From Candidatus Woesearchaeota archaeon (lineage in GTDB: Archaea; Nanobdellota; Nanobdellia; Woesearchaeales; UBA10216): a DNA stretch of 64,000 nucleotides. Positions within the stretch are counted from its first letter, which is position 1. Every line of letters begins with the position of its first letter. Both the position numbers and the translations under genes were made by a program. The stretch is from NCBI GenBank assembly GCA_016180085.1, contig JACPBX010000003.1, positions 74,655 to 138,654 of the forward strand, read 5' to 3'. This document shows, piece after piece, positions 5,229 to 21,993 of this stretch. A model generated the notes under the pieces. The model made no database searches. It was given only the letters and a program-made list of their open reading frames with translations, and was not told where the DNA came from.

Positions 5229-5510
5229 CTAATGGTTCTTTTCTGCCTTCCCTGTTGTTTTGCCGTAATGGTACTTCATAAGTATCAGAGTGATATTTAA
5301 CGCAATGCCTGCTATGTTTGCGGCTATTATGACTATATCTTTCTTGCTGATGCCGTAACTAAGCCAAAGGCTCATTCCCAAAGTAAGCGATGCGTTCATC
5401 AGGTATGATAAGTCCCCGAGGTGTTTTGTTTTGTAGCCCTTTATTATCTGCGGCACAAAGCCGAATGTCGTTAGTATTCCGGCTGCAAACCCGACGATTT
5501 CCCAGTTCAT
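5229..5510 (-). CDS. SemiSWEET-type PQ-loop mini sugar transporter (3 TM)
   Basis: 93 aa; VGFAAGILTTFGFVPQIIKGYKTK...LGMSLWLSYGI closely resembles bacterial SemiSWEETs (e.g. Bradyrhizobium IGFAAATCTTVAYAPQFIKVLKTR...LGLALWLIYGL); ATG at 5510..5508 overlaps the upstream dehydratase stop (ATGA coupling). Confidence 0.7.
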   Translation of the reverse strand: MNWEIVGFAAGILTTFGFVPQIIKGYKTKHLGDLSYLMNASLTLGMSLWLSYGISKKDIVIIAANIAGIALNITLILMKYHYGKTTGKAEKNH

Positions 5511-6493: not shown

Positions 6494-6500
6494 CTTGTTT

Positions 6501-7265
6501 TTATTTCCACACCTTCCACGGCGCCCCTTTTTCCCACAGCTCGTTGAAGCTCTGGTAATCCTTGAACGTGTCCATGCACTGCCAGAAGCCGTCAAACTGG
6601 TAAGCCGCTATTTCTTTTTTTGCAGCCAGTGTTTCAAACGGCTTCTGCTCGAGGATGTCATTCTCTCCAAGGCAGCTGAAAATCTCTTTCTTGAAAACAA
6701 AAAAACCGCCGTTTATCCAGTAGTCGAGCTTCGGCTTCTCCTTGAAGCTCGTTACCGAGCTGTCGTCAATTTCGACTATGCCGAACTGGGAGTATGGCCT
6801 AAGGCAGGTTATCGTGGCTATTTTTCCTTTCTTCTTATGGAATTCCAGAAGCTCCGGTATGTTTATGTCCGCCAAGCCATCGCCGTATGTTGCGAAGAAG
6901 TCCTCGCCTGCAGGTATGTATTTTTCTATTTTCTTAAGCCTGCCGCCTGTGTTTGTTTCAGTTCCCGTATCTGCGAATGTGATGTTCCAGTCCTCTTCGT
7001 CGCTTGCGTGGGTTACCCTTTTCTTCTCTTTCAGGTTCATTGTAAAGTCTGCTGCCTTCCACTCTTCTTCGATGAAGTATTTTTTTATCATGTCGCCCTT
7101 ATAGCCGAGGCAGAGGATAAAGTCCTTATAGCCGTAATGAGCATAAGTCTTCATTATGTGCCACAGTATCGGCTTGTCACCGATTGGAGCCAGCGGCTTT
7201 GGTATCTCTTCAGGGTATTCCCTGAACCTTGTCCCCTTCCCTCCGCACAATATGACGACTTTCAT
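6501..7265 (-). CDS. rfbF: Glucose-1-phosphate cytidylyltransferase (RfbF/DdhA-like)
   Basis: 254 aa; MKVVILCGGKGTRFREYPEEIPKPLAPIGDKPILWHIMKTYAHYG... is characteristic of RfbF. Confidence 0.85.
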   Translation of the reverse strand: MKVVILCGGKGTRFREYPEEIPKPLAPIGDKPILWHIMKTYAHYGYKDFILCLGYKGDMIKKYFIEEEWKAADFTMNLKEKKRVTHASDEEDWNITFADTGTETNTGGRLKKIEKYIPAGEDFFATYGDGLADINIPELLEFHKKKGKIATITCLRPYSQFGIVEIDDSSVTSFKEKPKLDYWINGGFFVFKKEIFSCLGENDILEQKPFETLAAKKEIAAYQFDGFWQCMDTFKDYQSFNELWEKGAPWKVWK

Positions 7266-7277
7266 CTTTTTGATTTT

Positions 7278-8168
7278 TTATTTCTTAATCATGTCCGCTA
7301 TGAAGCCGAACGTTACAATCTGGACTCCCACGCTCATGAGCAGCACGCTCAGTATCAAGCTCGGTATGTGGCCAACGATGCCTGTTGTGAAGTAGAAGTA
7401 GAGCAGCCTCAGCCCCAGGGCAAAGCCAGCAGCAAAGACCAGCCCTCCAATCATGCCAAAAAACCTTATTGGTTCATAATCGCGGTAGATGCGCAGGATG
7501 TTTATCCACGCCCTTGCAGCGTATTCGAACGGGTTTCGTATGAGCCTGCTTTTCCCTTTTCTCTCTGAAAAATAAACGGGCACCTCAGCAATCCTGAATT
7601 TGTTCTTTACTGCCTTGATTACCTGCTCCTGCGTGTAGGTGTGGTTTGAGATTATGTCTATCTTTTCGGCAACTTCCCTGGTGAATGCCCTGAACCCTGT
7701 CTGGGCGTCTGATATCCTTGCCTTGGCTATCTGGGAAACCACTTTTGAGAACGCCTTGTTCCCGAGCTTTTTTATGAGCGGCATCTTTTCTATTGTGCCC
7801 TTGAACCTTGAGCCAAGCACGAAGTCGTTCCCTTCCTCGATTTTCTTCAGAAGCAATGGTATTTCCTCTGCCTTGTACTGGCCGTCAGCGTCAATGTGCA
7901 CAATGGCTTCTGCCTCGGGCTTTAGCTTCAGGAACTGCTGTATCTCTGTCCTGAATGTTTCAGCAAGGCCGTAGTTTTTCGGGTGGGAGTAAACAACAGC
8001 GCCCTCGCCTTTTGCAGCCTCGGCTGTTTTGTCTGTTGAGCCATCGTCCACAACCAGCACCCTGTAGACGTAGCTGCGGTGCTTTCCTAGGACTTCCTTT
8101 ATGTTCCTTATTACATGGGCTATTGTTGCCTCTTCATTGTATGCTGGTATGCTGACAACTACGTTCAT
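7278..8168 (-). CDS. GT2 polyprenyl-phosphate sugar synthase-like glycosyltransferase with C-terminal TM helices (Dpm1/GtrB/ArnC-like)
   Basis: Start moved to MNVVVSIPAYNEE (ATG 8168..8166, verified); VVDDGSTD, DADGQ motifs; C-terminal membrane span; G5 run upstream. Confidence 0.75.
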   Translation of the reverse strand: MNVVVSIPAYNEEATIAHVIRNIKEVLGKHRSYVYRVLVVDDGSTDKTAEAAKGEGAVVYSHPKNYGLAETFRTEIQQFLKLKPEAEAIVHIDADGQYKAEEIPLLLKKIEEGNDFVLGSRFKGTIEKMPLIKKLGNKAFSKVVSQIAKARISDAQTGFRAFTREVAEKIDIISNHTYTQEQVIKAVKNKFRIAEVPVYFSERKGKSRLIRNPFEYAARAWINILRIYRDYEPIRFFGMIGGLVFAAGFALGLRLLYFYFTTGIVGHIPSLILSVLLMSVGVQIVTFGFIADMIKK

Positions 8169-9069: not shown

Positions 9070-9723
9070 ATGGCTGAGATTGACCTTCTTGACCGCTATC
9101 CGAGGACTAAGCGCAATCCTGACGAGAGGGCAGCCTCCCTCACTGATGAGGACAGGAGGGTTGCGAAGCAGTTCGGCAGCGAGTATTTTGACGGGCCCAG
9201 GAACAGGGGCTATGGCGGCTACAGGTACGATGGGAGGTGGGTTCCTGTTGTCAAGCGCTTTGCGGAGCACTACAACCTGACCGGCAGCAGCAGGGTGCTT
9301 GATGTTGGCTGTGCCAAGGGATTCATGCTTCACGACTTCAGGCAGGTTATTCCTGGCATCACGGTTGCAGGCATTGACATTTCGCAATACGCCATTGACA
9401 ATTCCATGGAGGACGTCAGGCCTTTCCTAAAGGTTGGAAATGCAAAAGACCTCTCAATGTTTGGCGACAAGTCGTTTGACCTTGTCATCTCAATTAACAC
9501 AATCCACAACCTGAAGCTTGAGGAGTGCAAGAAGGCTTTGAAAGAGATTCAGCGTGTTGGAAAGCGTGCCTTCATTACCATGGATGCCTGGCGCACTCCC
9601 GAAGAGGAAGTCAGGATGAAGAAGTGGAACATTACAGCAGAGACTTTCATGCACGTTGACGACTGGAAGAGGCTTTTCAATGAAGTCGGGTATACTGGCG
9701 ACTACTACTGGTTTATTCCTTAG
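9070..9723 (+). CDS. Class I SAM-dependent methyltransferase
   Basis: 217 aa; motif I VLDVGCAKG, post-I GIDIS, D-rich loop DLVISINTIHN; TTTATAAA box about 45 nt upstream. Confidence 0.7.
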   Translation: MAEIDLLDRYPRTKRNPDERAASLTDEDRRVAKQFGSEYFDGPRNRGYGGYRYDGRWVPVVKRFAEHYNLTGSSRVLDVGCAKGFMLHDFRQVIPGITVAGIDISQYAIDNSMEDVRPFLKVGNAKDLSMFGDKSFDLVISINTIHNLKLEECKKALKEIQRVGKRAFITMDAWRTPEEEVRMKKWNITAETFMHVDDWKRLFNEVGYTGDYYWFIP

Positions 9724-10776
9724 ATGAGGTTAAGCAAGAAAATGAGAATCAGGGCAGCAGTTCTTTACGGGCAGCACAAGCCTATGGTGGTAGAGGAGCT
9801 TGAAACTCCGGAGCTTGGCAGGGGCCAGGTTCTGGTGAAGGTCCTTTACAGCGGAATCTGCCAGACCCAGCTTAACGAGCTTAAGGGCGTCAAGGGCCCT
9901 GACAGCTTCCTGCCCCACCTGCTTGGCCATGAGGCATCTGGCATCGTTCAGGACATTGGCGGGGGCGTTACCAAGGTTAAGCCTGGTGATTATGTGGTGC
10001 TTTCATGGATGAAAGGGTCAGGGCTTGAAGTTCCTTCTTCGCAATACTCGCTTGGCGGGAAAAAGATAAATGCCGGAGCAGTCACGACTTTTCAAACGCA
10101 TTCTGTTGTTTCAGAAAACCGCATCACAAAAATTCCTGAAAAAGTGCCTGCCGACGTTGCCGCCCTTCTGGGCTGTGCAGTTCCTACAGGTGCGGGGATG
10201 GTCAGGAACACTCTTAAGGCCCAGCCCGGCAGCACTCTTGCGGTCTTTGGCTTGGGAGGAGTGGGCCTCAGTGCAGTGCTTTATGCCGCTTCGGTTGGCT
10301 GCGGAAAGATTATTGGCATTGACATCAGGAAGCAAAAGCTCGGCCTGGCGATGAAGCTGGGCGCAACCCACGCAATAGACGGCTCCGAAGGCAATGTGCT
10401 TGAGAAGATTCGGGAACTCACGCAGGGGCAGGGCGTTGATTTTGCAATAGAGTCCTCAGGCGTAAGGGAGGTCATGGAGCTTTCATTTGAGGCCATAAGG
10501 AATGGTGGCACTGCGGTCCTTGCAGGCAACATCAGGAAGGGAGAGAAAGTGGGCATTGACCCTTACGGCCTGATTTTTGGGAAGAAAATACTTGGGACGC
10601 ATGGAGGAGAAACCCATACTGACGAGGACATCCCGTTCTATGCCGGGCAGTACCTTGCCGGGAAGCTTAAGCTCGAAAAGCTCATCACCCACGTTTTCAC
10701 CCTTGACAAGGTCAATGACGCCTTTGCAGAGCTTGGCAAGGGAAACGTCGGCAGGGCTTTGCTAAGGCTGCACTGA
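9724..10776 (+). CDS. Zinc-binding alcohol/sugar dehydrogenase (MDR superfamily)
   Basis: 350 aa; GICQTQ...GHEASG (zinc ligands), GxGxxG Rossmann (VFGLGGVGL); alternative start at MRIRAAV (9742). Confidence 0.8.
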   Translation: MRLSKKMRIRAAVLYGQHKPMVVEELETPELGRGQVLVKVLYSGICQTQLNELKGVKGPDSFLPHLLGHEASGIVQDIGGGVTKVKPGDYVVLSWMKGSGLEVPSSQYSLGGKKINAGAVTTFQTHSVVSENRITKIPEKVPADVAALLGCAVPTGAGMVRNTLKAQPGSTLAVFGLGGVGLSAVLYAASVGCGKIIGIDIRKQKLGLAMKLGATHAIDGSEGNVLEKIRELTQGQGVDFAIESSGVREVMELSFEAIRNGGTAVLAGNIRKGEKVGIDPYGLIFGKKILGTHGGETHTDEDIPFYAGQYLAGKLKLEKLITHVFTLDKVNDAFAELGKGNVGRALLRLH

Positions 10777-11415
10777 GAAGTCGCTGATGCTTATGCCTGT
10801 GAAGCTGTCAACGGTTTTGTCTGCGATTGAAATGTTCTGGTCTTTTGTGTGCTCTGTGAGCAGGGCTATGCACATCATGCCTGCATTTTTTGCTGCCAGG
10901 ATGCCTGATTCAGAGTCTTCTATGACAGCGCACTCGCCCGGCTTCAGCCTGAGCCTTCCCGCAGTCTCGAGGTAAATGTCCGGCGCAGGCTTGGTTTTTG
11001 CCACGTCTGAGCCCGTGACCACTATTGCGAATGTTTTTTCCAGCTTTAGGAAGCTCAGGACATTCTGGACCTTTGTTTTTGAGCTGCTTGATGCAAGTGC
11101 AATCGCGTAATTGCTTGCCTTGAGTTTTGCCACGAGCTCGTGGAAGCCGGGATTTGGCTGAAGGTTGAGCTCCGCCATGGCGCTTTTCAGGTGCTCTTCG
11201 CGCTTTGCCACGAGTTCTTCAAGATTTGCTGTAATCCCGTGCTGCTTCAGGATTTCGTCGTAAATCTGCTTTCCGGGCTTGCCCGTGTGCCTCAGGTATT
11301 CCTCTTTGCCGATGTTCAGCCCAACGCTGCCCAGCACCTTTGAGTCGGCAACGAAGTTGAGCTGTGCAGTGTCTACAACCACTCCGTCCATGTCAAAGAT
11401 TACAGCTTTTATCAT
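10762..11415 (-). CDS. HAD-superfamily hydrolase, subfamily IA (beta-phosphoglucomutase/sugar-phosphatase-like)
   Basis: 217 aa; motif I AVIFDMDGVVVDT, motif II ALASSSSK, motif III/IV KPAPDIY...EDSESG. Confidence 0.8.
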   Translation of the reverse strand: MIKAVIFDMDGVVVDTAQLNFVADSKVLGSVGLNIGKEEYLRHTGKPGKQIYDEILKQHGITANLEELVAKREEHLKSAMAELNLQPNPGFHELVAKLKASNYAIALASSSSKTKVQNVLSFLKLEKTFAIVVTGSDVAKTKPAPDIYLETAGRLRLKPGECAVIEDSESGILAAKNAGMMCIALLTEHTKDQNISIADKTVDSFTGISISDFSVQP

Positions 11416-11563
11416 GTTAATCCCCTCTTTCCTTTCCTCTCAGGTTTCTGCGGCAATAAAGGGCAATATATAGAGGACTTTGAATAACCGCTCATATTTA
11501 ATTTTTGTTTAAAGTCCTCTCAGCGTATCGCTGAGGGATGTCAGCTCTAAGCTGACATTCTCT

Positions 11564-11605
11564 TAGACAACTTTGCTATACGACGGGGTTAATCAAAGTT
11601 GTCTA
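11564..11605. promoter_or_regulatory. Perfect 12-bp inverted repeat TAGACAACTTTG-N18-CAAAGTTGTCTA followed by TATAAAT; candidate operator / divergent-promoter element
   Basis: Read directly from sequence (arms at 11564-11575 and 11594-11605); lies in the 260-bp non-coding gap between divergent HAD and aminotransferase genes; two shorter hairpins (ctcagcg-tat-cgctgag at about 11517-11533 and tcagc-tctaa-gctga at about 11541-11555) lie just upstream. Confidence 0.4.
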
Positions 11606-11678
11606 TAAATCTTATTTTGCATGCTTGCAACCTGTTTCACTCCCTAACTATCGAAAACTTTAAGTAAGGCTGCTCTGG

Positions 11679-12800
11679 ATGCTTTTGCTATTCACTATGG
11701 CAAACATGAAAAAACTCTTTATTCCCGGGCCGGTTCAGGTGGACAGGCGGGTTCTCGAGGAAATGGCCCGCCCTATGATGCATCACCGTTCTGCTGAATG
11801 CGTTGCTCTAATCAGGGAAATAAACGGGCTGCTGTCAGAGCTCCTTGGGACAAAGGACAGCATATTTCTCCTCACAAGCTCTGCTACCGGCGCCATGGAG
11901 GCCTGCATAAGGAGCTGCGTCATAAGCAGGGTGCTGTGCATTGCCAACGGCGAGTTCGGAAGGCGATGGCATTCTGTGGCAGTTTCAAACGGTAAGGATG
12001 CCAGGCTGCTGGACTTTGGCGATGGCGCGCTGGTTGACTACGGCGCTGTGGCTGATGAGCTGAGGAAAGGCGATTTTGATGCTGTGACCTTCATAATTAA
12101 TGAGACGTCAACAGGCATGGAGAACGACTCAAAGGCGCTGAAAGCAGCTGTCCAGGCTGCTTCAGGGGATGCCGCAAAGGACATTATAATATTGGCAGAT
12201 GGAGTTTCTGCTGTCTTTGGGACAAAGGTTGACATGGCTGACTATGATGCGCTGCTTTTTGCAACGCAGAAATCCCTTGCGCTGCCTCCGGGCATGTCCA
12301 TAATAATTGCGAACAGCCGGGCAATTGGCCGTGCCAAGCTGGTCAAGGGCAGGGGCTACTACTTCGACTTCCTTCTCCTCAAGAAGAGGAGCGATGAGAA
12401 CATGACAACAACAACGCCTGCCCTGCCGATTCTTTATGCCCTGAGGTACAGGCTGCAGGAGATTGGGAAGCAGGGGATTGGCAGCTACATTAACAGGCAT
12501 AAAGCCATGGCCGAGCTTGTCCGCAGCAGAATCAGGGGCATGGGCTTCAGGCTTTTCGTGCCAAGCAGCTACTCAAATACTGTTACTGTCATTTCAAATA
12601 ACCTTGGCGTTGATACTGAAGGGCTGATAAGGCTTCTTTCTGAAAAGGGCTATGTCATTGAAAACGGCTACGGCCCATTGAAGAACAAGACTTTCAGGAT
12701 AAGCCACATGGGCGATATAACCCCTGCTGATACAGGGGAGCTGCTTGCCGAGATGGAGAAAATCGTGAAATCGCAGCTGTCAGCCAGCAGCTTGCCGTGA
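11679..12800 (+). CDS. Class V aminotransferase (AGXT/SGAT/archaeal-SerC family)
   Basis: 373 aa; N-terminal LFIPGPVQV...MMHHRSAEC signature of the class V/AGXT family; true start probably MANMKK/MKK (11700/11706); 4-nt overlap with the downstream kinase gene. Confidence 0.8.
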   Translation: MLLLFTMANMKKLFIPGPVQVDRRVLEEMARPMMHHRSAECVALIREINGLLSELLGTKDSIFLLTSSATGAMEACIRSCVISRVLCIANGEFGRRWHSVAVSNGKDARLLDFGDGALVDYGAVADELRKGDFDAVTFIINETSTGMENDSKALKAAVQAASGDAAKDIIILADGVSAVFGTKVDMADYDALLFATQKSLALPPGMSIIIANSRAIGRAKLVKGRGYYFDFLLLKKRSDENMTTTTPALPILYALRYRLQEIGKQGIGSYINRHKAMAELVRSRIRGMGFRLFVPSSYSNTVTVISNNLGVDTEGLIRLLSEKGYVIENGYGPLKNKTFRISHMGDITPADTGELLAEMEKIVKSQLSASSLP

Positions 12801-13888
12801 ACGGGAATGATGGAAAAGTGGGAAAGGCCAGGGTTTTTGCACCGGCAACAACAGCCAATGTCGGCCCGGGCTTTGACATCTTTGGCGTTGCACTTGATGG
12901 CGTAGGCGATATTGTCGAAGCTGACTTGTCTGATTCTTTCAGTGGTGTAAGGCTGGCGGAGGTTGCTGTCGGTTCAGACAGCGAAAGCTTAAAGGACCTT
13001 CCAATGGATGAGGCAAATCTCGTTTTTCCCGTTGCAAAGGCAGTGTATGATGCGGCTTGCAAAGCTGGCCGCAAAGACACCGGCGTTGAGGTAAGGCTGA
13101 TTAAGAGGATGGGAATAGGCACAGGGCTCGGCAGCAGCGGCTCAAGCTCTGTTGCTGCTGCCGTTGCAGTTAATGAGGCTTTGGGCGGGGTTTTTGCCCG
13201 TGACAGCCCCGAGATGCTTGCTGCTGTCCTGGAAGGCGAATTTGTTGCCTGCGGCTCCAGGCACGCTGATAATGTTTTCCCTGGCCTTCTTGGCGGCTTT
13301 GTCTTCATCGAGGACCCAGCCTCATTCAGGTTCAGGAAGTTTGACGTTGGCAGAGACGTGTTTTTTGTAGTTGTTACGCCTGAAATTGTCGTCAGCACAA
13401 AGGAAGCAAGGGATGCATTAAGGGCTTCGCCATACAACATCGGTGAGCTTGTAAGCCTTTCCAGCTCAGTGGTTAGGCAATACCTTGACTCGGGCAGCCG
13501 CAGCTCAGGCAGTATTCCTGCTTCAGTTGTTGGCACTGGCTCGGCTGATGTTGTTTCAGCTTACCTGGAGGGAACGGTTGAGGTTCTAACAGGCCTGATT
13601 GGCAATGATGCTGAGCTGCTTGGCAGGGGCACGCTGAAAGATGGCATTGTTACCCCAATAAGGGCAGGGCTTATTCCGGGCTATTACGATGTCAAGAAGG
13701 CCGCCCTTGAGGCTGGCGCAAAGGGGTTTTCAATTTCTGGCTCAGGCCCTTCTGTTTTTGCAGTGGCTTATGAGGAAGATGCTGAGGCTGTAAAGAAAGC
13801 CATGATTGGCAGGTTTGAGGGCCTGGGCAAAAGGGCGAGCGGCATCATCTCAGCCGTAAACAACAAAGGCGCCTGCCCGGTTGAGTGA
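12797..13888 (+). CDS. GHMP-family kinase, homoserine-kinase (ThrB)-like
   Basis: 363 aa; N-terminal APATTANVGPGFDIFGVAL (ThrB-type motif 1) and GIGTGLGSSGSSSVAAAVA (GHMP ATP-binding motif 2). Confidence 0.75.
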   Translation: MNGNDGKVGKARVFAPATTANVGPGFDIFGVALDGVGDIVEADLSDSFSGVRLAEVAVGSDSESLKDLPMDEANLVFPVAKAVYDAACKAGRKDTGVEVRLIKRMGIGTGLGSSGSSSVAAAVAVNEALGGVFARDSPEMLAAVLEGEFVACGSRHADNVFPGLLGGFVFIEDPASFRFRKFDVGRDVFFVVVTPEIVVSTKEARDALRASPYNIGELVSLSSSVVRQYLDSGSRSSGSIPASVVGTGSADVVSAYLEGTVEVLTGLIGNDAELLGRGTLKDGIVTPIRAGLIPGYYDVKKAALEAGAKGFSISGSGPSVFAVAYEEDAEAVKKAMIGRFEGLGKRASGIISAVNNKGACPVE

Positions 13889-13936
13889 TTTTATTTTGGA
13901 GAAATTATTTAAAGGAGCGTTTCAGGCAGCCTTTCC

Positions 13937-15184
13937 TTGTTGGAAGTGGAATGCATGATTGATGTTGGCAGGTTCAGGAACATACAATATGGGAAAAGGA
14001 CAAGGTGCATGGCTTGCGGGGCAGCTGTTGGCAAGCCGCTGATAAGCCTGCCTGATTTTCCTTTGAGCGAGATTTACACGGACCGCCCTGTTAAGGAGAA
14101 AGCAGGATTTGTTGACCAGGAGTTCTGCCTTTGCAAAAGCTGCGGCCATGGCCAGCTGCTTAACATAATCCCGCCGGAGCTCCTTTACTTTGGCAGCAGC
14201 TACTTTTTCAGGACTTCGCAGAGCAGGACTGCTGTGCCAGCTGTTGACTTCTTTCTCGACTTTGTCGAGGGCGTTCTTAAAAGCAGGGCTTACGATACCA
14301 TTGCTGACATTGGCTGCAACGACTTGTACATGCTGAAGAAGCTTGACGCTAAGGCAAAAAGGCTTTTGGGGATTGACCCTGTCCTCGCAGGAAGGGAGAA
14401 GGAGCTTTCTGAGGGGAAGACCGTTGTCATTGGGGACTTGTTTGAGAATGCTGTTGCCAATCACAACGTATCTTTCGATAAGGACCTTGTGCTTAGCAGC
14501 CACACCCTGGAGCACGTGAAGGACCCTAAGTGGCTTGTCAAGACTGTGCTTGACAGTTCAACAGATAACACGCTGTTCGGTTTCCAGTTCCCGGGTTTCG
14601 AGAGCCTGGTGAGGGATGCAAGGTTTGATCAGGTGTTCCACCAGCACTATAACTATTTCACTTTGAAGTCAGTCGTCCGCATGCTTACGGACCTGGGCGC
14701 AGAGCTTGTTGCTTACAAGGTGAACCCTTACCACTGGGGTGCGCTGATGATAGTGTTCAGGAAAAACCCCTCAGGCTCAACAGCCTGGCACAAGAGGTTT
14801 GAGCATGATGCTGTGCAGCTCACTGATGAGGCAGTCCTCTCGCAGTACCGGGTTTTTCAGGATGCCATGAAGCTGGCAGGTGAGCGCCTTTCAGCGTGGA
14901 AGGGCAGCACGGTTTACGGCTACGGCGCAGCAAACATGCTTCCCGTCCTGAGCTACCACATGAAGAACGACCTTTCCTGCCTTCAGGCTGTATTGGATGA
15001 TGATGAGCGCAAGCAGGGCATGCACTACATCAACCTTCCTGTTGCCATAAAGTCCCCTTCTGTTGTTAAGGACTTCAAGGATGTTGTGCTGTTCCTTACA
15101 GCCATTGACAATTCCAGGATACTTGTGCCAAAGCTTATCTCGCTCGCACCAAAGAAAATTATCCTTCCCCTTAACATTGTGTAG
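13937..15184 (+). CDS. NDP-hexose C-methyltransferase (TylCIII family; Zn-ribbon + Methyltransf_13/14)
   Basis: 415 aa; N-terminal CMAC...CKSCGHGQL Zn-ribbon, SAM motif DIGCNDLYML, C-terminal C-methyltransferase domain. Confidence 0.75.
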   Translation: MLEVECMIDVGRFRNIQYGKRTRCMACGAAVGKPLISLPDFPLSEIYTDRPVKEKAGFVDQEFCLCKSCGHGQLLNIIPPELLYFGSSYFFRTSQSRTAVPAVDFFLDFVEGVLKSRAYDTIADIGCNDLYMLKKLDAKAKRLLGIDPVLAGREKELSEGKTVVIGDLFENAVANHNVSFDKDLVLSSHTLEHVKDPKWLVKTVLDSSTDNTLFGFQFPGFESLVRDARFDQVFHQHYNYFTLKSVVRMLTDLGAELVAYKVNPYHWGALMIVFRKNPSGSTAWHKRFEHDAVQLTDEAVLSQYRVFQDAMKLAGERLSAWKGSTVYGYGAANMLPVLSYHMKNDLSCLQAVLDDDERKQGMHYINLPVAIKSPSVVKDFKDVVLFLTAIDNSRILVPKLISLAPKKIILPLNIV

Positions 15185-15322
15185 CCATTATGCAGCGCTA
15201 TGTGATTCTCCTCCATAAAATTTCGGGCTATGACGGTAAGAGGGGGTAAAATTTATATACTCTCACGGATTCGGGACAGCTTCCGGAAAACAGCTGCGTG
15301 TTTGCAGCAGTCTTGAAGGGGG

Positions 15323-16117
15323 TTGTTTTTTATGGATTTTGGTCTGACTGGCAAGAAAGCCTTGGTTACTGCAGCGAGCCGCGGCATTGGCGCGTCCATT
15401 GCAATAAACCTGGCAAAGGAAGGCGCGCTGGTTGCTATTACAGCGAGGAGCGAGCCTGACCTTAAGGAAGTCATTGCAAAGATGGGCGGCGAAGGTAAAG
15501 GCCATTACATGGTTGTTGCTGACCTGACTGCCGAGGACGGCCCGAAGAAAGTTTTTGACAAGGTTCTGAAGGATTTTGGCTCCCCTGACATTCTTGTCAA
15601 CAACCTTGGCGATACGCTTGAGCTCCGAGACCCTTTTATCCCAATCAGTGACTGGAGAAAAATCATAAGGCTCAACCTTGAGGTCGCCATTGAGCTGAAC
15701 AATCTTGTTATTCCGCATATGGAGCAGAGGAAATGGGGCAGGATAGTTAATGTTTTGTCAACAGCATCTTACGAGAACAACGGGCCTGTCCCTTACTGCA
15801 CTGCCAAGGCTGCCTTCTCGGCTTATACGAGAAGCATGGCCAGGGTTTTGGCAAAGACAGGCATTGTTATGTCCGGCATTGTGCCTGGCGCTATTTTCAC
15901 AGAGGGCGGTGCCTGGGACATTGCCATGAAGACAAGGCCTGAGCACATCCGCAAATACCTGGAGGAAAGGCTCCCCCTGGGCAGGTTTGGCGAGCCTGAT
16001 GACATAGGTACCATGGCTGTTGTGCTGTGCTCAGAGCAGGCAAAGTTCTGCCAGGGCTCCATTTTCCCTGTTGATGGCGGCCAGAGCAGGCACTATTTTC
16101 GGGCTGCCACTGATTAA
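15323..16117 (+). CDS. Short-chain dehydrogenase/reductase (FabG-like ketoreductase)
   Basis: 264 aa; ALVTAASRGIGASIA (TGxxxGIG), NNLG, YCTAKAA (YxxxK). Confidence 0.85.
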   Translation: MFFMDFGLTGKKALVTAASRGIGASIAINLAKEGALVAITARSEPDLKEVIAKMGGEGKGHYMVVADLTAEDGPKKVFDKVLKDFGSPDILVNNLGDTLELRDPFIPISDWRKIIRLNLEVAIELNNLVIPHMEQRKWGRIVNVLSTASYENNGPVPYCTAKAAFSAYTRSMARVLAKTGIVMSGIVPGAIFTEGGAWDIAMKTRPEHIRKYLEERLPLGRFGEPDDIGTMAVVLCSEQAKFCQGSIFPVDGGQSRHYFRAATD

Positions 16118-16118
16118 A

Positions 16119-17918
16119 ATGAAGCTGTCTGACTATGTTGTGGAGTTTTTGGTTGAGCAGGGCATAAGGCACGTTTTTCTAGTTTCAGGAGGGGCGGTTG
16201 CGCACCTTGTTGATTCAGCAGCAAGAAACCCCAGAATGACTTACGTGTGCCCTGAGCATGAGCAGAACGCAGGCTCTGCTGCTGATGCCTATGCGAGGAT
16301 AACGGGGAAGATGGGTGCCGTGTTCACGACGAGCGGGCCTGGCGCCACCAACCTTGTGACGAGCGTTTGCAACTCATATTTTGACTCAATCCCTGTTATT
16401 TTCATCACAGGCCAGGTTGCGACATTCCGCATAAGGCCCAGCGAGAGGCTTCGCCAGAAGGGCTTTCAGGAAACCGATGTTATTTCCATATTTAAGTCAA
16501 TCACCAAATACTCGATACAGCTCAGGAAAGCAGAGGACATCAAGTTCGTCCTTCAGGAAGCTGTCCATGCAGCCACGTCAGGGAGGATGGGTCCTGTCCT
16601 TGTTGATATTCCTGATGATTTGCAAAGGGTCGAGATTGACCCTGAAAAGCTTCGGGATTTTAAGCCTTTGGCTGCCCAGGCAGGTGCAGTAAACCCGGCA
16701 AATGACCTGTCAGCTGTTAAGGATGTCTTTGCAGCCATAAGGTCTGCGAAAAGGCCTGTGCTTATCCTCGGCGCGGGCATCAGGCTTTCAGGCACAGTTC
16801 CTGAAGCCCTGAAGTTTGCCGAGCATTTCCGCATTCCGTTCCTTTTGACGTGGGGCGCTATGGACATGGTTGAGCACGGCTATGAGCTTAACATGGGCGG
16901 TGTTGGCGTTTGCGGCCCAAGAGGAGGTAATTTTGCAGCCCAGACGTCAGACCTTGTTGTTGCGCTTGGCACAAGGCTTTCCCAGATGATTACAGGCGGC
17001 AAGCAAAACCTTTTCGCTCCCTATGCGAAAAAAATCATGGTTGACGTTGATGCTGAGGAGCTTAACAAGTTCTCGCCAAGCGATGTTGTCCTTGACGTGA
17101 AAATCAGCTGTGGCCTCAGGGATTTTTTTGCAGAATGCGAAAGGCTTTACAGCGGCACCGGCCCTGCCGAAAAGGGCAGGCTGAAGGAGTGGAGGCAGCA
17201 AATCAATGAGTGGAGAATGAAATACCCAATCTGTCCCGGGTCAAACTACGGCAGGAAGGAAAGGGTTGATGCATACGTTTTTATCAGGGAGCTGTCAAAG
17301 GCAGCCAAGGAAGGTGATGTCATTTTCACCGATGCAGGCGGCAACCTGAGCCAGACCATGCAGGCCTTCGAAGTGAAAAAAGGCCAGCGCCTCATCTCAG
17401 CCTGGAACCACTCGCCCATGGGCTATGCGCTTCCTGCAGCCATTGGCGCTGCGTTTGCAATCGGCCAAGGCAGCGGCAAGGACATCCTGTGCATCATCGG
17501 CGATGGCGGCATTATGATGTGCCTTGAGGAGCTTGCGGTTATTGCCAAGCACAACCTTCCAATAAAAATTTTCGTTTTTAACAACCATGGCCATGCAATC
17601 CAGAAGCAGACCATCGATACCTGGCTTAACTCGCATTACGTGGCTGTTGACGAGTCTTCCGGCCTTGCTTTCGCTGATTTTGACAAAATCGGCCCGGCCT
17701 TCGGGCTTCCGGCTGTTGCCATAAGAAACCACGAAGAGCTTAAGGCAAAGCTTGGCAAGGTCCTTGGCGCCAAGGGCCCTGTGCTGTGCAATGTTGAGAT
17801 TGCTGTAGACCAGAGGATTGTTCCGATGCTCAGGTTTGGCGCAGGCATTGAGGACCTGGACCCAAAACTGCCTAAGGAAGAGGTTGAGGCAATCATGGCT
17901 GTTGGCAGGAAAAGGTAA
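16119..17918 (+). CDS. Thiamine-pyrophosphate-dependent enzyme of the acetolactate-synthase/benzoylformate-decarboxylase family (YerE-like candidate)
   Basis: Start moved to MKLSDYVVEFLVEQGIRHVF (ATG 16119, 1 nt after the SDR stop); N-terminal Pyr domain, central domain, C-terminal PP domain with GDGG...N TPP-binding motif (IIGDGGIMMCLEEL...FNN). Confidence 0.8.
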   Translation: MKLSDYVVEFLVEQGIRHVFLVSGGAVAHLVDSAARNPRMTYVCPEHEQNAGSAADAYARITGKMGAVFTTSGPGATNLVTSVCNSYFDSIPVIFITGQVATFRIRPSERLRQKGFQETDVISIFKSITKYSIQLRKAEDIKFVLQEAVHAATSGRMGPVLVDIPDDLQRVEIDPEKLRDFKPLAAQAGAVNPANDLSAVKDVFAAIRSAKRPVLILGAGIRLSGTVPEALKFAEHFRIPFLLTWGAMDMVEHGYELNMGGVGVCGPRGGNFAAQTSDLVVALGTRLSQMITGGKQNLFAPYAKKIMVDVDAEELNKFSPSDVVLDVKISCGLRDFFAECERLYSGTGPAEKGRLKEWRQQINEWRMKYPICPGSNYGRKERVDAYVFIRELSKAAKEGDVIFTDAGGNLSQTMQAFEVKKGQRLISAWNHSPMGYALPAAIGAAFAIGQGSGKDILCIIGDGGIMMCLEELAVIAKHNLPIKIFVFNNHGHAIQKQTIDTWLNSHYVAVDESSGLAFADFDKIGPAFGLPAVAIRNHEELKAKLGKVLGAKGPVLCNVEIAVDQRIVPMLRFGAGIEDLDPKLPKEEVEAIMAVGRKR

Positions 17919-17923
17919 GAAAA

Positions 17924-18967
17924 ATGGGAAATGAAGACGTTATTTCAGCAGTGAAATCAAAGTATCCGCTTTCCAGGCTCAAGGAGATGCTTGAGGGCCT
18001 TGGAAGTGTTAAGGCGATGGTGGTGGGCGATACCATAATTGACGAGTATCACTTCACAATCCCGAAGGGCAGGGCCACGAAGGACCCTATTTTGTCCGTT
18101 GACTACATCAACCACGAGGTTTATGCCGGCGGCATTTTGGCAATTGCCAACCATGTCAGCAACTTTGTTGGCAGCGTTACGTGCGTAACGCTTCTGGGTA
18201 ATAAGGACGACAGGAAGGGCTTTGTTGAAGGCTCGCTTAACAGGAACGTTACCCTGAAATCCTTTATGAAGGAGAACTCACCTACAACTGTTAAAAAGCG
18301 CTATCTGAACTATCTTCGCAACGAAAAGCTGTTTAAGGTTGAGTACATTAACGACAGGCCCATATCTGAAAAGCTTGAGGCTGAACTGATAGCTTTCCTT
18401 AATGTTGAGCTGCCCAGGCACGACCTTGTCCTGGTCGGTGACTTTGGCCACGGCATGATAACCCCGGCAATTATTGAGGTATTGGAGAAAAAGGCGAAAT
18501 ACCTTTGTGTCAATGCGCAGAGCAACAGCTCAAACCTGGGCTTCAACTTTGTGACAAGGTATCATTTGCCCGCTTTTGTGACAATGGACGTCCAGGAGCT
18601 CCAGTACGCTGTTGGCGACAGGTTCAGCCCCATGCCTGTCCTTATTCAGAAGCTGCACGAAAAGGCAGGCTTTAACAAGTTCCTCGTGACTATGGGCAAG
18701 GATGGCGCTGGCTTCTTCAGCAGCGGCAGGCTTTCTTTTTTCCCTGCCTTTGTGACAAGGCCTCAGGACACTGTCGGGGCTGGCGACGCTGTCTTTTCCA
18801 TCGCATCCCTTTTCTCCTACAGCAGCCATGATGAGCTGATTCCCTTCATTGCCAACTGCGTGGGAGGGATTGCTGTTTCGTACATGGGCAACAAGGAGTT
18901 CATAACCAGGAACGCGCTTGTCAGCTTTGTTGAAGAAGTGTATAATGGCAATACGAAGGTGCGGTGA
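17924..18967 (+). CDS. hldE: PfkB-family sugar kinase, HldE/RfaE domain-I-like (heptose 7-phosphate 1-kinase candidate)
   Basis: 347 aa; N-terminal AMVVGDTIIDEY, C-terminal DTVGAGDAV (PfkB motifs); co-occurs with gmhA and an adenylyltransferase-GmhB fusion. Confidence 0.7.
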   Translation: MGNEDVISAVKSKYPLSRLKEMLEGLGSVKAMVVGDTIIDEYHFTIPKGRATKDPILSVDYINHEVYAGGILAIANHVSNFVGSVTCVTLLGNKDDRKGFVEGSLNRNVTLKSFMKENSPTTVKKRYLNYLRNEKLFKVEYINDRPISEKLEAELIAFLNVELPRHDLVLVGDFGHGMITPAIIEVLEKKAKYLCVNAQSNSSNLGFNFVTRYHLPAFVTMDVQELQYAVGDRFSPMPVLIQKLHEKAGFNKFLVTMGKDGAGFFSSGRLSFFPAFVTRPQDTVGAGDAVFSIASLFSYSSHDELIPFIANCVGGIAVSYMGNKEFITRNALVSFVEEVYNGNTKVR

Positions 18968-18991
18968 TTATAGCGCTTATCGCTTACTTCG

Positions 18992-20140
18992 TCATCTTTC
19001 CATTACCTTGTCAAACTCGTTCTTCAGCTCTTCATAGCTTTTGTCTGTGACGTCGATGAATGCAGCATTGGCGTTCCGTGCCATGCCGGCGTCGTCTTCG
19101 CTGTTGCCGATAACGGCTGCCTTGTCAAACTCCTTTATGTTCTTGCCCAGCTGCTGTAAGGCCTGCAGCAGCATCTCGGGGCTCGGCTTCCTTTTTGTTT
19201 TCTTTTTTACAAAATCCGGGTTGAAATTAGCTTCTTTCTGTAAGGCGGCATAGTCCGCATCAGCGTCTGGGCAGTATTGCCAGTTGTTTATTATAACACC
19301 TTTTCTTCTCAATAATTCATGAATGTGCTTGTTTACAGCTTCAACTTTTTCCGCATCAAAATAGCCCCTGGCAACTCCCTGCTGATTTGAAATAACGACC
19401 CTGACAGTGTCGTACTTTGTCTGTATGTAGATGAGCAAGTCAACAACTTCTTTCTTTAGCTTTATCTGATCTCTCCAGTTAGAGTCTTTGCCCAGAAAAT
19501 TAACCTTCTCCACCAATGTGCCGTCCCTGTCAATCACCAGCAGCACTTTTTCGCTCTTTGCATTTTCCTGTATGTGCCTGATGATGGCCGTTGTTGACAT
19601 TTTCTGGTCTGTGGTATACTTTATTTCGCCGCCAACAGCCTTTATCGCTTCTCTCTCGGAAGTGATTCCTGGTGTTGTCTTTTCAGCAAAATCGGGCCCT
19701 TTTATGTAATAGGCAGGTTTTAGCATTTTAATCAGGTCGGTTGCTTTCTCAAAGTCGCTGACAATCACGTAGTCAACATACCGGATGCTTGCAACTGAAT
19801 AAGCCCTTAATGCCTCTGAGAAGATTGGCCTGCCGCTGCCTTTCCTGGCTGCCACAAACCTGTCTGCGGTTACTGCAACAAAAAGGCAGTCGCAAAGCTT
19901 TTTTGCTGATTCCAGGTGCTTTATGTGACCTGGATGAAGAAGGTCAAAGCCGCCGTTGCAAAGCCCGGCTTTCCTTCCCTGCTTCCTCAGCTCCTCGCTT
20001 TTTTCCACAGCCTCGGCAAGGCTTATGACCTTGTCGGACCTGTAGTTTTTGGGTGAGTCTTCCTTTATCATCTGCAATGCAGCCCTATTTGCCGCCTCCG
20101 CCTCCTGCAAGCTTTTTAACCTTCCTGATAATTGCTTCAA
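18992..20140 (-). CDS. Bifunctional cytidylyl/adenylyltransferase (HldE domain-II-like) fused to D,D-heptose-1,7-bisphosphate phosphatase (GmhB-like HAD)
   Basis: N-terminal CNGGFDLLHPGHIKHLESAKKL...LFVAV (HIGH-type nucleotidyltransferase, like HldE-II/TagD); C-terminal LLVIDRDGTL...ISNQQGVARGYF...YCP...RKPSPEML...GNSEDDAGMARNA matches GmhB; start may be the internal ATG at 20071, which would remove the 56-nt overlap with the next gene. Confidence 0.7.
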   Translation of the reverse strand: MKQLSGRLKSLQEAEAANRAALQMIKEDSPKNYRSDKVISLAEAVEKSEELRKQGRKAGLCNGGFDLLHPGHIKHLESAKKLCDCLFVAVTADRFVAARKGSGRPIFSEALRAYSVASIRYVDYVIVSDFEKATDLIKMLKPAYYIKGPDFAEKTTPGITSEREAIKAVGGEIKYTTDQKMSTTAIIRHIQENAKSEKVLLVIDRDGTLVEKVNFLGKDSNWRDQIKLKKEVVDLLIYIQTKYDTVRVVISNQQGVARGYFDAEKVEAVNKHIHELLRRKGVIINNWQYCPDADADYAALQKEANFNPDFVKKKTKRKPSPEMLLQALQQLGKNIKEFDKAAVIGNSEDDAGMARNANAAFIDVTDKSYEELKNEFDKVMER

Positions 20141-20822
20141 GCCAGACTTCGGCGAATAGTTTGGGTATGAAGGCCGTTACCCCTAATATGTTTTTCGCCC
20201 TGAACATCTTTGAGCTGGGCTTCGGCGCTATGTTGACTGGTATTTCCTCATAGCTGTGGCCCCGGCGGAGCAGCCTTACAAGTATTTCCGCCTGGAAGGC
20301 GTAGCTGTTGGTTGTTATCCTTGCCTGCCTTGCGAGGCTTGTTTCATAGCACACCATCCCGAGATAATATTTCAGCCTCAGCCCGAAGAGCACGTTGAGT
20401 GTTGTTGTGAACATTGTTGATATCAGCCTTCTGTCTACTGGCCTTGTTTCCCTGTTGGCAACATATGCTACGATGATGTCTTTTTCGCCAACGTGCTGCA
20501 GGAATGCCTTCACTGATTCGGGTGGTATGCCGCCGCTGCCAGGCAGAATCATGATGTACTTTTTGGCTGCAGCTGTAAGCCCTGCGCGGTAGCTGTAGCC
20601 GACGTTCATGTTTTTCCTGTTGTGGATGACCCTTATCCTGTGGTTTTCCCTTGCAAGCCGGTCTGCCATCTCTGGCGTTTTGTCAGTGCTTCCGTCATCA
20701 AGGATTATTAGTTCGTAGTCGTTGAACACGCTGCCGACAGCTTCAATGATGTTCCTGACCGCTGCTGAAAGGTTTCTTTCCTCGTTATATGCAGAGATTA
20801 GGATGGTTATTGACCTTTCCAT
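20085..20822 (-). CDS. GT2 glycosyltransferase (Dpm1-like)
   Basis: Start taken at MERSITILISAYNEE; ILDDGSTDKT motif. Confidence 0.75.
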   Translation of the reverse strand: MERSITILISAYNEERNLSAAVRNIIEAVGSVFNDYELIILDDGSTDKTPEMADRLARENHRIRVIHNRKNMNVGYSYRAGLTAAAKKYIMILPGSGGIPPESVKAFLQHVGEKDIIVAYVANRETRPVDRRLISTMFTTTLNVLFGLRLKYYLGMVCYETSLARQARITTNSYAFQAEILVRLLRRGHSYEEIPVNIAPKPSSKMFRAKNILGVTAFIPKLFAEVWLEAIIRKVKKLAGGGGGK

Positions 20823-20862
20823 GCTGTCATGCTCCCACATAGCTATGTTATTAATTAAGCTG

Positions 20863-21993
20863 TTAGAATGGCCCCGTGAAGCTCGGGTCTGGCACGTCGG
20901 GCTTGGCAGGCAGCTTCTGCCTCTCTGACTCGGCTATGGCTTTCGCCTGCCCTTCCGGCACATTTGCCAGCTCGCACACCTCTTTTATTATGTCGATGTG
21001 CGATGGATAATAATGCTTGCTCAACGCATGGCTCGTTGGTGTCGGGATGTCCGGCAGCGTCACCCTTTTTGGCGCTGCTTTCAGCCTGCCAAACAAGGAT
21101 TTGTTTTCGCTGACCCTCGCTATGATATCGCCTGCAAGCCCGCCTGAGTAGTAGCCTGAGTCGATGACAAGGAGCTTGCCTGTTTTTTCAACGCTCTGCC
21201 TGATTGTTTCGAAGTCCAGAGGCTTTATCGTCCTTAAGTCTATGATTTCAGGGCTTACTTTCCCGGCCAGTGCATTTGCCGCTTTCATAGCCTGAACAGT
21301 CATGTAAGAGCTTGTTACGATTGTCACGTCTTTTCCTTCCCTGAGCACCTTTGCCTTTCCAATGGGCACTGTGTATGGCTTTTCAGGCACATACCCTGTT
21401 ATGTTGTGCAGCCACCTGTGCTCTATGAATATGACTGGGTTGTTGTCCTTTACGCTTGCGATGAGAAGCCCTTTTGCATCATAGGCGTTGCTTGGCATCA
21501 CGACTTTCAGCCCAGGCGCATGTGCCAGAATGGCTTGCAGGTTTTGCGAATGCTGGGCTCCCTGCCCCCAGCCCTGCCCTATTATTGCCCTTATGACCAT
21601 TGGCACGCTCAGCCTGCCTCCAAACATGTAGTGCCATTTCGCTGCATTGTTTACAATCTGGTCCATGGCAAGGAGGATGAAGTCGAGCCTTTGGTGCACC
21701 ATAATCGGCCTTAGGCCTTTCAGTGCTGCCCCTATGCACACCCCTGTGAGGCCGTTTTCCGATACCGGCATGTCAAGCACCCTGTTTTTGCCGTGCTTTT
21801 CCCGGAGCCCTGTTGTTGTGCCAAAGATGTGCTTCGGGTCAGGCACGCCTTCGCCTATTACGAACACAGAGCTGTCCATCTGCATGCACTGGTCTGTTGC
21901 TTCCAGCACTGCCTCTGCGTAGGTTATCTTTCTCTTCCTTTCATCTTTAGCAGCTTCAGCCGTTGTTTCCATTTTTTCCATTTCCATCAGCAT
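20863..21993 (-). CDS. Pyruvate/2-oxoacid dehydrogenase E1 component beta-subunit-like (transketolase Pyr + C-terminal domains)
   Basis: 376 aa; IGEGV...G, AEN(GL)TGVCIGAAL, HSQN...PGLKVV characteristic of E1-beta; no E2/E3 genes nearby. Confidence 0.8.
   Translation of the reverse strand: MLMEMEKMETTAEAAKDERKRKITYAEAVLEATDQCMQMDSSVFVIGEGVPDPKHIFGTTTGLREKHGKNRVLDMPVSENGLTGVCIGAALKGLRPIMVHQRLDFILLAMDQIVNNAAKWHYMFGGRLSVPMVIRAIIGQGWGQGAQHSQNLQAILAHAPGLKVVMPSNAYDAKGLLIASVKDNNPVIFIEHRWLHNITGYVPEKPYTVPIGKAKVLREGKDVTIVTSSYMTVQAMKAANALAGKVSPEIIDLRTIKPLDFETIRQSVEKTGKLLVIDSGYYSGGLAGDIIARVSENKSLFGRLKAAPKRVTLPDIPTPTSHALSKHYYPSHIDIIKEVCELANVPEGQAKAIAESERQKLPAKPDVPDPSFTGPF

Follow-up and report, generated by a model that had tools for sequence, protein, structure and literature searches.

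The DNA analysed here, called the window below, is a 64,000-nucleotide stretch of contig JACPBX010000003.1 from a DPANN archaeon, Candidatus Woesearchaeota. Three of its genes encode a HAD-IA phosphatase, a class V aminotransferase (AT) and a ThrB-family kinase of the homoserine-kinase type. They form an accessory cassette inserted into a pre-existing sugar-modifying operon. A housekeeping role for the AT/kinase pair is unlikely, and the pair appears to belong to glycan synthesis. What the cassette most likely provides is a keto acid, donor for sugar branching by an enzyme dependent on thiamine diphosphate (ThDP), rather than a phospho-amino substituent.

A three-gene cassette in the glycan island

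Open reading frames (ORFs) of about 150 aa and longer were scanned with Pfam across positions 1-64000. The glycan island occupies the entire 64 kb, and an initial annotation of this DNA was right to place its genes in such an island. Almost all ORFs with a match encode glycosyltransferases, sugar-nucleotide enzymes, flippases or PMT-like membrane proteins. The scan recovered about nine GT2 and five GT1/GT4 glycosyltransferases, together with PMT_2-type membrane proteins, a flippase, two DegT aminotransferases and seven genes of the epimerase/dehydratase family.

The initial annotation had drawn attention to a block of five co-directional genes encoding the AT, the kinase, a sugar C-methyltransferase (C-MT), a short-chain dehydrogenase/reductase (SDR) and a ThDP enzyme. 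The coordinates and the forward orientation of the first four are correct (Table 1). The ThDP gene does follow in the same direction, but its start is to be set at 16119, one base past the SDR stop. The start codon of the kinase gene is GTG (12797-12799) and overlaps the TGA stop codon of the AT gene (12798-12800), so that the junction reads GTGA and not ATGA as first described. The cassette was found in three further loci: L001, with the gene order of the window and a kinase 83% identical, L008 (69%), on a 143-kb Woesearchaeota contig, and L003 (56%), from a JGI metagenome. The tight coupling of AT and kinase is kept in these relatives, where the two genes overlap in L001 and L008 and are separated by 46 nt in L003.

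The five genes do not recur as a block. Of the four loci, only the window and L001 have the C-MT gene, L003 and L008 having none; another Woesearchaeota locus, L099, has it with neither AT nor kinase. The conserved unit includes instead the phosphatase gene, which the block had left out. In the window and in L001, L008 and L003, the HAD gene is always divergent and just upstream of the AT gene, and the kinase gene directly follows the AT gene. Across the three loci, identity to the window ranges from 62 to 88% for HAD, from 67 to 88% for AT and from 56 to 83% for the kinase. Because the unit recurs in three further loci, the adjacency of AT and kinase is beyond chance. Its placement, conserved in the glycan clusters of four Woesearchaeota-type loci, is not accidental, as the initial annotation had supposed.

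In four of the four loci, the cassette lies at most two genes from a YerE-like ThDP enzyme whose best match in the PDB is JanthE. The enzyme on the cassette side of L003 is only 33% identical to that of the window, yet it is still JanthE-like (310 bits, versus 256 for acetolactate synthase, ALS). The L099 locus has no cassette. Its ThDP enzyme is 79-80% identical and its genes come in the same order: small methyltransferase (MT), zinc alcohol dehydrogenase (ZnADH), C-MT, other genes, SDR, ThDP enzyme, other genes, PfkB kinase, HldC-GmhB fusion, other genes, E1. Since nothing stands between the ZnADH and C-MT genes in this collinear locus, the cassette is judged to be an accessory insertion.

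The HAD and AT genes are separated by a 263-bp spacer. In the alignment of the four spacers, T.TATAAAT.TT is invariant, and the TATAAAT box is likely the archaeal promoter of the AT-kinase operon. No riboswitch or known RNA was found in the spacer, with no Rfam match at E up to 1. The window spacer also contains an insert of about 145 bp (11455-11605) that is absent from L001, L008 and L003 and has no Rfam match. It carries three hairpins, with 16-nt arms at 11472-11487/11505-11520, 9-nt arms at 11538-11546/11550-11558 and perfect 12-nt arms at 11564-11575/11594-11605. The insert may represent a small element, either mobile or regulatory.

The three cassette enzymes

The AT is 100% identical to NCBI protein P0121, annotated as Candidatus Woesearchaeota. 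Because P0121 has 367 residues, translation of the AT probably starts at ATG 11697. Its scores are below every NCBIfam equivalog cut-off (best BhcA, 145 bits versus 650; then PhnW-AepZ, 137 versus 361). The bacterial SerC models (TIGR01364-6, NF003764) reach at best 50.7 bits, below the cut-off of 401.65. In a neighbour-joining tree, the island ATs form one clade with P0125 as sister (60% identity), followed by P0126 (55%) and P0141 (47%) in the same clade. The genes of P0125, P0126 and P0141 each directly follow and overlap a SerB-SerA fusion gene, with a gene for seryl-tRNA synthetase (SerRS) or serine hydroxymethyltransferase (SHMT) adjoining. Judged by this context, these three proteins are archaeal class V phosphoserine aminotransferases (PSATs), a group whose type we take to be MJ0959. 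Since the island AT nests in a clade whose other sampled members follow a SerB-SerA fusion, we read its sequence as that of a recruited, little-altered phosphoserine-type transaminase. The island ATs keep 75 of the 92 positions conserved in the sister clade, including the HRS motif, and show three fixed changes. In none of the four loci is serA or serB found beside the island AT, which is flanked by the HAD-IA phosphatase and the ThrB-like kinase within glycan genes.

Compact serine operons were observed in three DPANN contigs, L009 (5673-8316), L010 (8478-11080) and L098 (2979-5626). A gene of about 505-520 codons, fusing a HAD phosphoserine phosphatase to a 3-phosphoglycerate dehydrogenase-like protein, overlaps the start of the class V PSAT gene. 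A SerRS or SHMT gene adjoins the operon in each of the three contigs.

Phosphonate biosynthesis was also considered, as PhnW-AepZ is the second-best NCBIfam match of the AT and B12-radical SAM genes occur in L001. This route was rejected: the AT falls within the PSAT clade, and the scanned ORFs of the window yielded neither a phosphoenolpyruvate mutase nor a phosphonopyruvate decarboxylase.

The kinase scores above two curated equivalog thresholds for homoserine kinase, with 246.4 bits for NF002288 (cut-off 194) and 172.9 bits for TIGR00191 (cut-off 168.25). NCBIfam models of other GHMP families (IspE, archaeal shikimate kinase, mevalonate kinase) give at most 37 bits. Homoserine kinases of the PDB (4p52, 188 bits; 1fwk, 115 bits) align over the full length, except for an insertion. 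The TTANVGPGFD, RHADNV, STKEAR and PIRAG motifs align with the homoserine kinases of M. jannaschii and Cytophaga. We defined 61 near-invariant columns, conserved in at least 95% of 102 canonical ThrBs; 47 of them are kept in all ten island homologues (the window kinase and nine close homologues). Residues N21, D27, E148, H156, D158, N159, T201 and R289 are retained, including ANxGxGFD, HADN, STKEAR and the arginine of PxR. Their roles in binding substrate, phosphate and magnesium, among them a carboxylate contact by Arg289 and a magnesium-binding Glu, are presumably those of the M. jannaschii structures. Three features set the kinase apart. A Glu present in 100% of canonical ThrBs is replaced by Thr (E286T), several further positions are also different, and 35 residues are inserted at 224-258. 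They are shared with stand-alone DPANN homologues outside glycan loci. By its sequence, the kinase is thus best described as a DPANN-specific long form of the ThrB family. Both AT and kinase keep most of the residues expected of enzymes acting on free alpha-amino or alpha-keto acids.

The stand-alone long-form kinases (349-389 aa) are found on DPANN-type contigs L002 (10001-11050), L004 (10001-11074) and L006 (10001-11146). They have no amino-acid or glycan genes around them, and their hosts are thought to lack threonine biosynthesis. A scan of a genome collection with the island kinase returned only Cytophagales ThrB (35-38% identity), the source metagenome-assembled genome (MAG) and its relatives lying outside that collection. 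A metagenome scan with the island-kinase alignment kept 80 loci, all with at most 39% identity and none of them an island member; the patterns used also fit canonical ThrB. An antisense ORF of 280 aa (12694-13536, reverse strand) overlies the kinase gene. Its translation is rich in Ser, Thr, Pro and Ala, and it is most likely not a gene.

The third member, the HAD-IA phosphatase, obtains 138 bits with the NCBIfam beta-phosphoglucomutase (beta-PGM)/YqaB subfamily model, under the cut-off of 153. In the PDB it is matched best by TM_1254, a sugar-phosphate phosphatase, and by beta-PGM and CbbY.

A possible keto-acid supply for the YerE-like carboligase

The ThDP enzyme encoded after the SDR had been labelled ALS-like. 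It does belong to the ALS family but is closer to YerE and JanthE, its best PDB match being JanthE (8rph; 335-337 bits over the full length, as compared with 271 for the best true ALS and 252 for PpYerE, 5ahk). The NCBIfam model of the ALS large subunit gives 379 bits, under the cut-off of 538. Neither an ALS small subunit nor ilv genes (ilvN, ilvC, ilvD) were found among the window ORFs scanned. The protein is 100% identical to P0241, annotated as Candidatus Woesearchaeota and encoded on the 147,581-bp contig that also carries P0121, and relatives of the same type with 55-66% identity occur in Chlamydiales, Omnitrophota, Marinimicrobia and CPR bacteria. On these matches, the predicted activity is that of a YerE-like carboligase rather than an acetolactate synthase.

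Enzymes of the YerE-like class transfer a decarboxylated acyl unit from a 2-oxo acid to a keto sugar nucleotide, after which a reductase acts (PMC9306805, PMC12247030). The carboligase and the reductase are paired as YerE/YerF and ErwE/ErwF (PMC9306805). ErwE does not accept pyruvate, and its preferred donors are gamma-hydroxy 2-oxo acids, 4-hydroxy-2-oxobutanoate among them; the genes making its donor, encoding the aldolase ErwI and the dehydrogenase ErwJ, are clustered with that of the carboligase (PMC9306805, PMC12247030). JanthE is a YerE-like ThDP enzyme from Janthinobacterium whose natural substrates are unknown. In the island, candidate reductases are at hand. The SDR gene adjoins the ThDP gene in the window, L001, L003 and L099. 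The pair of MT and ZnADH genes recurs in L001, L008, L099 and L100, and L003 has the ZnADH gene. A search of the papers available found no described link between YerE-like enzymes and a homoserine kinase or a PSAT.

Two observations on related ThDP genes may be added. The L099 enzyme (P0244, locus 10001-11770) deviates at positions that are 90-100% conserved (Y58C, G491C, H492Y, Q495M). The last three changes lie just past the ThDP-binding NN motif, which suggests that its chemistry is altered. In L100, an unrelated locus, a gene for an amino-acid-type class I AT, aspartate-AT-like, lies immediately upstream of a ThDP gene whose product is 64% identical to that of the window; this speaks for the keto-acid supply proposed below.

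The family assignments, the synteny kept across loci and the accessory character of the cassette are shown above; we infer the substrates, the order of the steps and the link to the ThDP enzyme as follows. Kinase and AT would turn a hydroxy-amino acid into a phospho- or hydroxy-2-oxo acid, which the carboligase would use, the phosphate being removed later; we assign this reading a probability of about 0.35. First, the ThrB-type kinase would phosphorylate the side-chain hydroxyl of a free L-hydroxy-amino acid. The family suggests L-homoserine, with serine, threonine or 4-hydroxythreonine as alternatives. Second, the PSAT-type AT would convert the phospho-amino acid into a phospho-2-oxo acid, such as 4-phosphooxy-2-oxobutanoate. 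Third, the YerE/JanthE-like enzyme would decarboxylate the 2-oxo acid and couple the acyl-anion equivalent to a sugar nucleotide with a keto or aldehyde group. The new ketone would then be reduced by the SDR or the ZnADH. Finally, the HAD enzyme would strip the phosphate, acting on the keto acid ahead of ligation or on the branch once it is in place. In sum, an obtainable amino acid would be turned, at the expense of ATP, into a functionalised keto-acid block for a branched or chain-extended sugar. Such a mechanism would account for the recruitment of a PSAT lineage together with a kinase and a phosphatase, and for the position of the cassette beside carboligases that consume 2-oxo acids. It would also account for the free amino- and keto-acid features of AT and kinase and for the finding of no enzyme to attach a phospho-amino group.

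Several points weigh against this proposal. We know of no description of 4-phosphooxy-2-oxobutanoate as a metabolite, and phosphate elimination is expected from it. The proposal also leaves homoserine without an evident source in a DPANN cell. Homoserine would be the default substrate of the kinase by family, but specificity is uncertain because the kinase clade lost the invariant Glu and gained the 35-aa insertion. The residues equivalent to the JanthE pocket are the same in ThDP enzymes with and without a linked cassette, and show no sign of adaptation to a special donor. This identity lowers our confidence in such a donor; pyruvate or another ordinary metabolite may be used, or the cassette may do no more than patch, in a metabolically poor archaeon, a precursor made anyway by other organisms. 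The cassette is also dispensable for the module, as it is missing from L099 and from the bacterial version in the Chlamydiales locus L101. Lastly, the positional link comes from four loci only, three of them closely related.

Some of these points would suit a serine route, a serious rival although we hold it to be rather improbable. Here the kinase would have shifted to L-serine and, with the PSAT, would run the serine pathway backwards to 3-phosphohydroxypyruvate, or to hydroxypyruvate after the action of HAD. The product, which bacteria get via SerA, would be a glycolaldehyde-type donor for the ThDP enzymes or a glycerate precursor. With an AT barely altered from bona fide PSATs, the native substrate pair is the simplest assumption. 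The lack of the cassette in the bacterial module and the unchanged ThDP pocket fit an ordinary metabolite as product, and the loss of the Glu beside the conserved Arg289, together with the insertion, would allow the kinase a changed specificity. Against this, the kinase stays above the homoserine-kinase equivalog cut-offs and keeps the other substrate-site motifs, related DPANN genomes carry SerB-SerA with PSAT, and to our knowledge no ThrB-family serine kinase has been described.

The initial annotation had favoured a group that stays on the glycan. The pair would build a phosphorylated amino acid or amino alcohol, for instance O-phosphohomoserine or a phospho-amino-alcohol arising by decarboxylation, transferred via a nucleotide-activated intermediate. 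Amino-acid-derived phospho-substituents occur in Campylobacter capsules, and the island contains a kinase with nucleotidyltransferases nearby. The latter are, however, accounted for as heptose and glucose-1-phosphate enzymes, and the phosphatase is an invariant third member of the cassette. Pfam scans of the window found no LicD, EptA, CDP-alcohol type transferase, ATP-grasp ligase or pyridoxal-phosphate-dependent decarboxylase, and no dedicated or extra nucleotidyltransferase for attaching a phospho-amino compound. Because the phosphatase is constant and no such transferase, ligase or nucleotidyltransferase was found, the phosphate is probably a transient handle and not a final substituent. 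An amino-acid-derived input to the glycan is kept from the initial proposal as the best reading, on account of the placement conserved in glycan clusters, of the lack of thrC, serA and serB nearby and of the residues suited to free acids; the lasting phospho-substituent is disfavoured and looks improbable. As for a phospho-amino-alcohol product, the YerE/JanthE-like partner points instead to a 2-oxo-acid donor for C-C branching.

It could also be argued that the two genes are the organism's own PSAT and homoserine kinase, serving serine and threonine metabolism and merely located in the island. The PSAT lineage of the AT, the equivalog scores of the kinase and the stand-alone long-form kinases outside glycan loci in other DPANN genomes would agree with this. 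Yet the same three genes hold the same place in glycan operons down to 56% kinase identity. No thrC, serA or serB lies near the pair in any of the four loci, and neither the scanned ORFs of the window nor the called genes of L001, L003 and L008 yielded thrC, hom, asd, serA or serB. A homoserine kinase without threonine synthase is useless for housekeeping. In relatives, the PSAT gene overlaps serB-serA in an operon, making duplication and recruitment more parsimonious than relocation. We thus give this explanation little credence. Among the window ORFs scanned, pdxA, pdxB and pdxJ were likewise not found.

That the AT aminates the ketone of a ThDP-installed acyl branch, with kinase and phosphatase acting on sugar hydroxyls, is very hard to credit: transamination of acyl branches has a precedent, for example in kibdelomycin (PMC12247030), and an AT gene also adjoins the ThDP gene in L100, but both lineages handle free alpha-amino and alpha-keto acids and keep most conserved positions, the sugar aminotransferases of the island are of the DegT type and the L100 AT is an aspartate-AT-like amino-acid enzyme.

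Neighbouring genes and comparison with known systems

The coordinates of the cassette and of the other genes discussed are collected in Table 1.

Table 1. Position and supporting matches of the cassette and of other sugar-related features in the window
Feature	Position	Strand	Basis
CDP-glucose 4,6-dehydratase-like gene	5507-6595	-	TIGR02622, 231 bits versus 278
Glucose-1-phosphate cytidylyltransferase	6501-7265	-	TIGR02623, 299.9 bits versus cut-off 300.25
Small class I S-adenosylmethionine (SAM) methyltransferase, MetW-like	9070-9723	+	Pfam, NCBIfam and PDB matches
Class-III-like ZnADH	9724-10776	+	Pfam, NCBIfam and PDB matches
HAD-IA phosphatase, divergent from AT, third cassette member	10762-11415	-	Pfam HAD_2, 123 bits
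TATAAAT box, HAD/AT spacer	11604-11610	+	T.TATAAAT.TT invariant in alignment of four spacers
Class V AT, archaeal PSAT lineage	11679-12800	+	Pfam Aminotran_5, 57 bits
ThrB-family (homoserine-kinase-type) GHMP kinase, long form	12797-13888	+	Pfam GHMP_kinases_N and _C; NCBIfam
Sugar C-MT-like gene (TcaB9/TylC3 type), outside the conserved cassette	13937-15184	+	Pfam Methyltransf_13/23/14
Classical SDR ketoreductase, YerF-like candidate for reducing the acyl branch	15323-16117	+	Pfam adh_short_C2, 150 bits
YerE/JanthE-like ThDP-dependent carboligase (ALS family)	16119-17918	+	Best PDB match 8rph (JanthE)
PfkB kinase, heptose-nucleotide gene	17924-18967	+	rfaE_dom_I, 108 bits
HldC-like nucleotidyltransferase fused to GmhB-like phosphatase	18992-20140	-	rfaE_dom_II, 120 bits; histidinol-phosphatase domain, 94 bits
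Stand-alone E1 beta/alpha pair (alpha-ketoacid dehydrogenase E1 type)	20863-22994	-	Pfam E1_dh, Transket_pyr, Transketolase_C
GmhA-like SIS gene	36487-37092		Family match

Four candidate enzymes for C-C bond formation on sugars are encoded in the island: two C-MTs, the YerE-like enzyme and the E1 pair. In the C-MT next to the kinase, the three Pfam domains of the type (Zn-ribbon, SAM-MT and C-terminal) were found, two of them under their gathering scores (31.2 versus 31.3 and 19.6 versus 23.5). Its PDB matches are solely sugar 3-C-methyltransferases (TcaB9, KijD1-type and mycarose 3-C-methyltransferase; E from 6e-17 to 3e-14). The second is a fusion protein of 767 aa (27916-30219, reverse strand) in which a strong C-MT (Methyltransf_13/23/14, with 179 bits for Methyltransf_14) is joined to an NAD-dependent epimerase/dehydratase. 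The first is 25% identical to the C-MT domain of this fusion.

The E1 alpha and beta genes stand without E2 or E3 in the window. Both subunits fall under the cut-offs of the NCBIfam pyruvate dehydrogenase E1 models, with 331 bits for alpha and 320 versus 321 for beta. The pair accompanies the ThDP gene in L003, L099, L100 and L101. No link with the AT/kinase cassette is evident, as the 21 kb read of L008 contain no such pair. Enzymes named alpha-KADH2 put C2 branches on sugars (PMC12247030), and by analogy the E1 pair is a candidate second sugar-branching ThDP enzyme.

A module recurs across phyla that comprises the JanthE/YerE-like enzyme, the stand-alone E1 alpha/beta pair, the small MetW-like MT and SDRs (window 9070-22994, L099, L100, L101). 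It occurs in Woesearchaeota, in a MAG of Chlamydiales and on a further metagenome contig, and most loci include the class-III-like ZnADH. In the bacterial-type contexts L100 and L101, the ThDP gene is found with E1 alpha/beta, a small MT, SDRs and epimerases, the ZnADH being in L100 only. Heptose-linked genes lie near the module, namely SIS, PfkB and HldC-GmhB in the window, SIS and HldE in L101 and GT9 in L100. The module resembles a pathway shared by horizontal transfer, leading to a heptose-related sugar that is branched or extended. The two genes at 5507-7265 are a possible source of a CDP-4-keto-6-deoxyhexose acceptor. An antisense ORF of 422 aa (6300-7568, forward strand) lies over the cytidylyltransferase gene and part of the dehydratase-like gene; it has no Pfam match and is most likely not a gene. 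Further away, in a GT1/GT4 glycosyltransferase of 801 aa (58095-60500, reverse strand), the Glycos_transf_1 match breaks at residue 304 and resumes after an insert. The insert contains Hint_2 (305-368) and LAGLIDADG_3 (617-694) domains and looks like an intein with a homing endonuclease.

Sugar-branching ThDP chemistry is known so far from (myco)bacteria and actinomycete antibiotics. We tentatively propose that DPANN archaea may use YerE-like and E1-type ThDP enzymes to make surface sugars with acyl branches or extended chains. Some of them may feed these enzymes by an undescribed kinase/PSAT/phosphatase route in which the phosphate would serve as a transaminase handle and as a thermodynamic drive. 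If so, acyl-branched sugar biosynthesis would extend to DPANN archaea, and a third donor supply would stand besides pyruvate from central metabolism and aldolase-made keto acids. Such a route would matter to a DPANN archaeon, whose own central metabolism is scant. The surface glycans of these organisms are essentially uncharacterised and probably mediate host contact. The route would also offer biocatalysis a natural kinase/transaminase/carboligase cascade, leading from amino acids to functionalised tertiary alcohols. The island is also a clear warning for annotation: when genes of a reduced genome are labelled "homoserine kinase" or "alanine--glyoxylate aminotransferase", amino-acid biosynthesis should not be deduced from this.

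The closest known systems are those of yersiniose and erwiniose. As in these, an ALS-family ThDP carboligase is encoded next to an NAD(P)H reductase in a surface-glycan cluster with CDP-hexose enzymes. The erwiniose cluster resembles the island further, since its donor-making genes stand with that of the carboligase, as those of the island would, and ErwE takes 4-hydroxy-2-oxobutanoate. The erwiniose donor is made by an aldolase from pyruvate and an aldehyde, whereas the putative supply of the island would start from an amino acid and rely on kinase, PSAT-type transaminase and phosphatase. The island also differs by its DPANN host in place of a (myco)bacterial one, its heptose-nucleotide genes and its E1 alpha/beta pair.

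JanthE is the best structural-database match over the full length for both cassette-side ThDP enzymes considered, those of the window and of L003. The ThDP motif is CDG in JanthE and GDG in the window enzyme, and the JanthE pocket residues V121, Y268, P293, Y297 and K567 become F, C, M, G and M, respectively.

In bacterial vitamin B6 metabolism, SerC and ThrB both handle a C4 phospho-compound, 4-phosphohydroxy-L-threonine or its 2-oxo acid. The C4 O-phospho-amino-acid chemistry proposed here would thus be within reach of the PSAT and homoserine kinase families. The island AT differs in being of the class V, AGXT-like archaeal type and not a bacterial SerC, and its context is glycan synthesis. 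Finally, the stand-alone E1 alpha/beta pair, without E2 and E3 in a sugar cluster, resembles the alpha-KADH2 enzymes (KbDH of kibdelomycin, avilamycin-type). Those known belong to actinomycete antibiotic clusters, whereas the present pair lies in a cell-surface glycan island beside a YerE-like enzyme.

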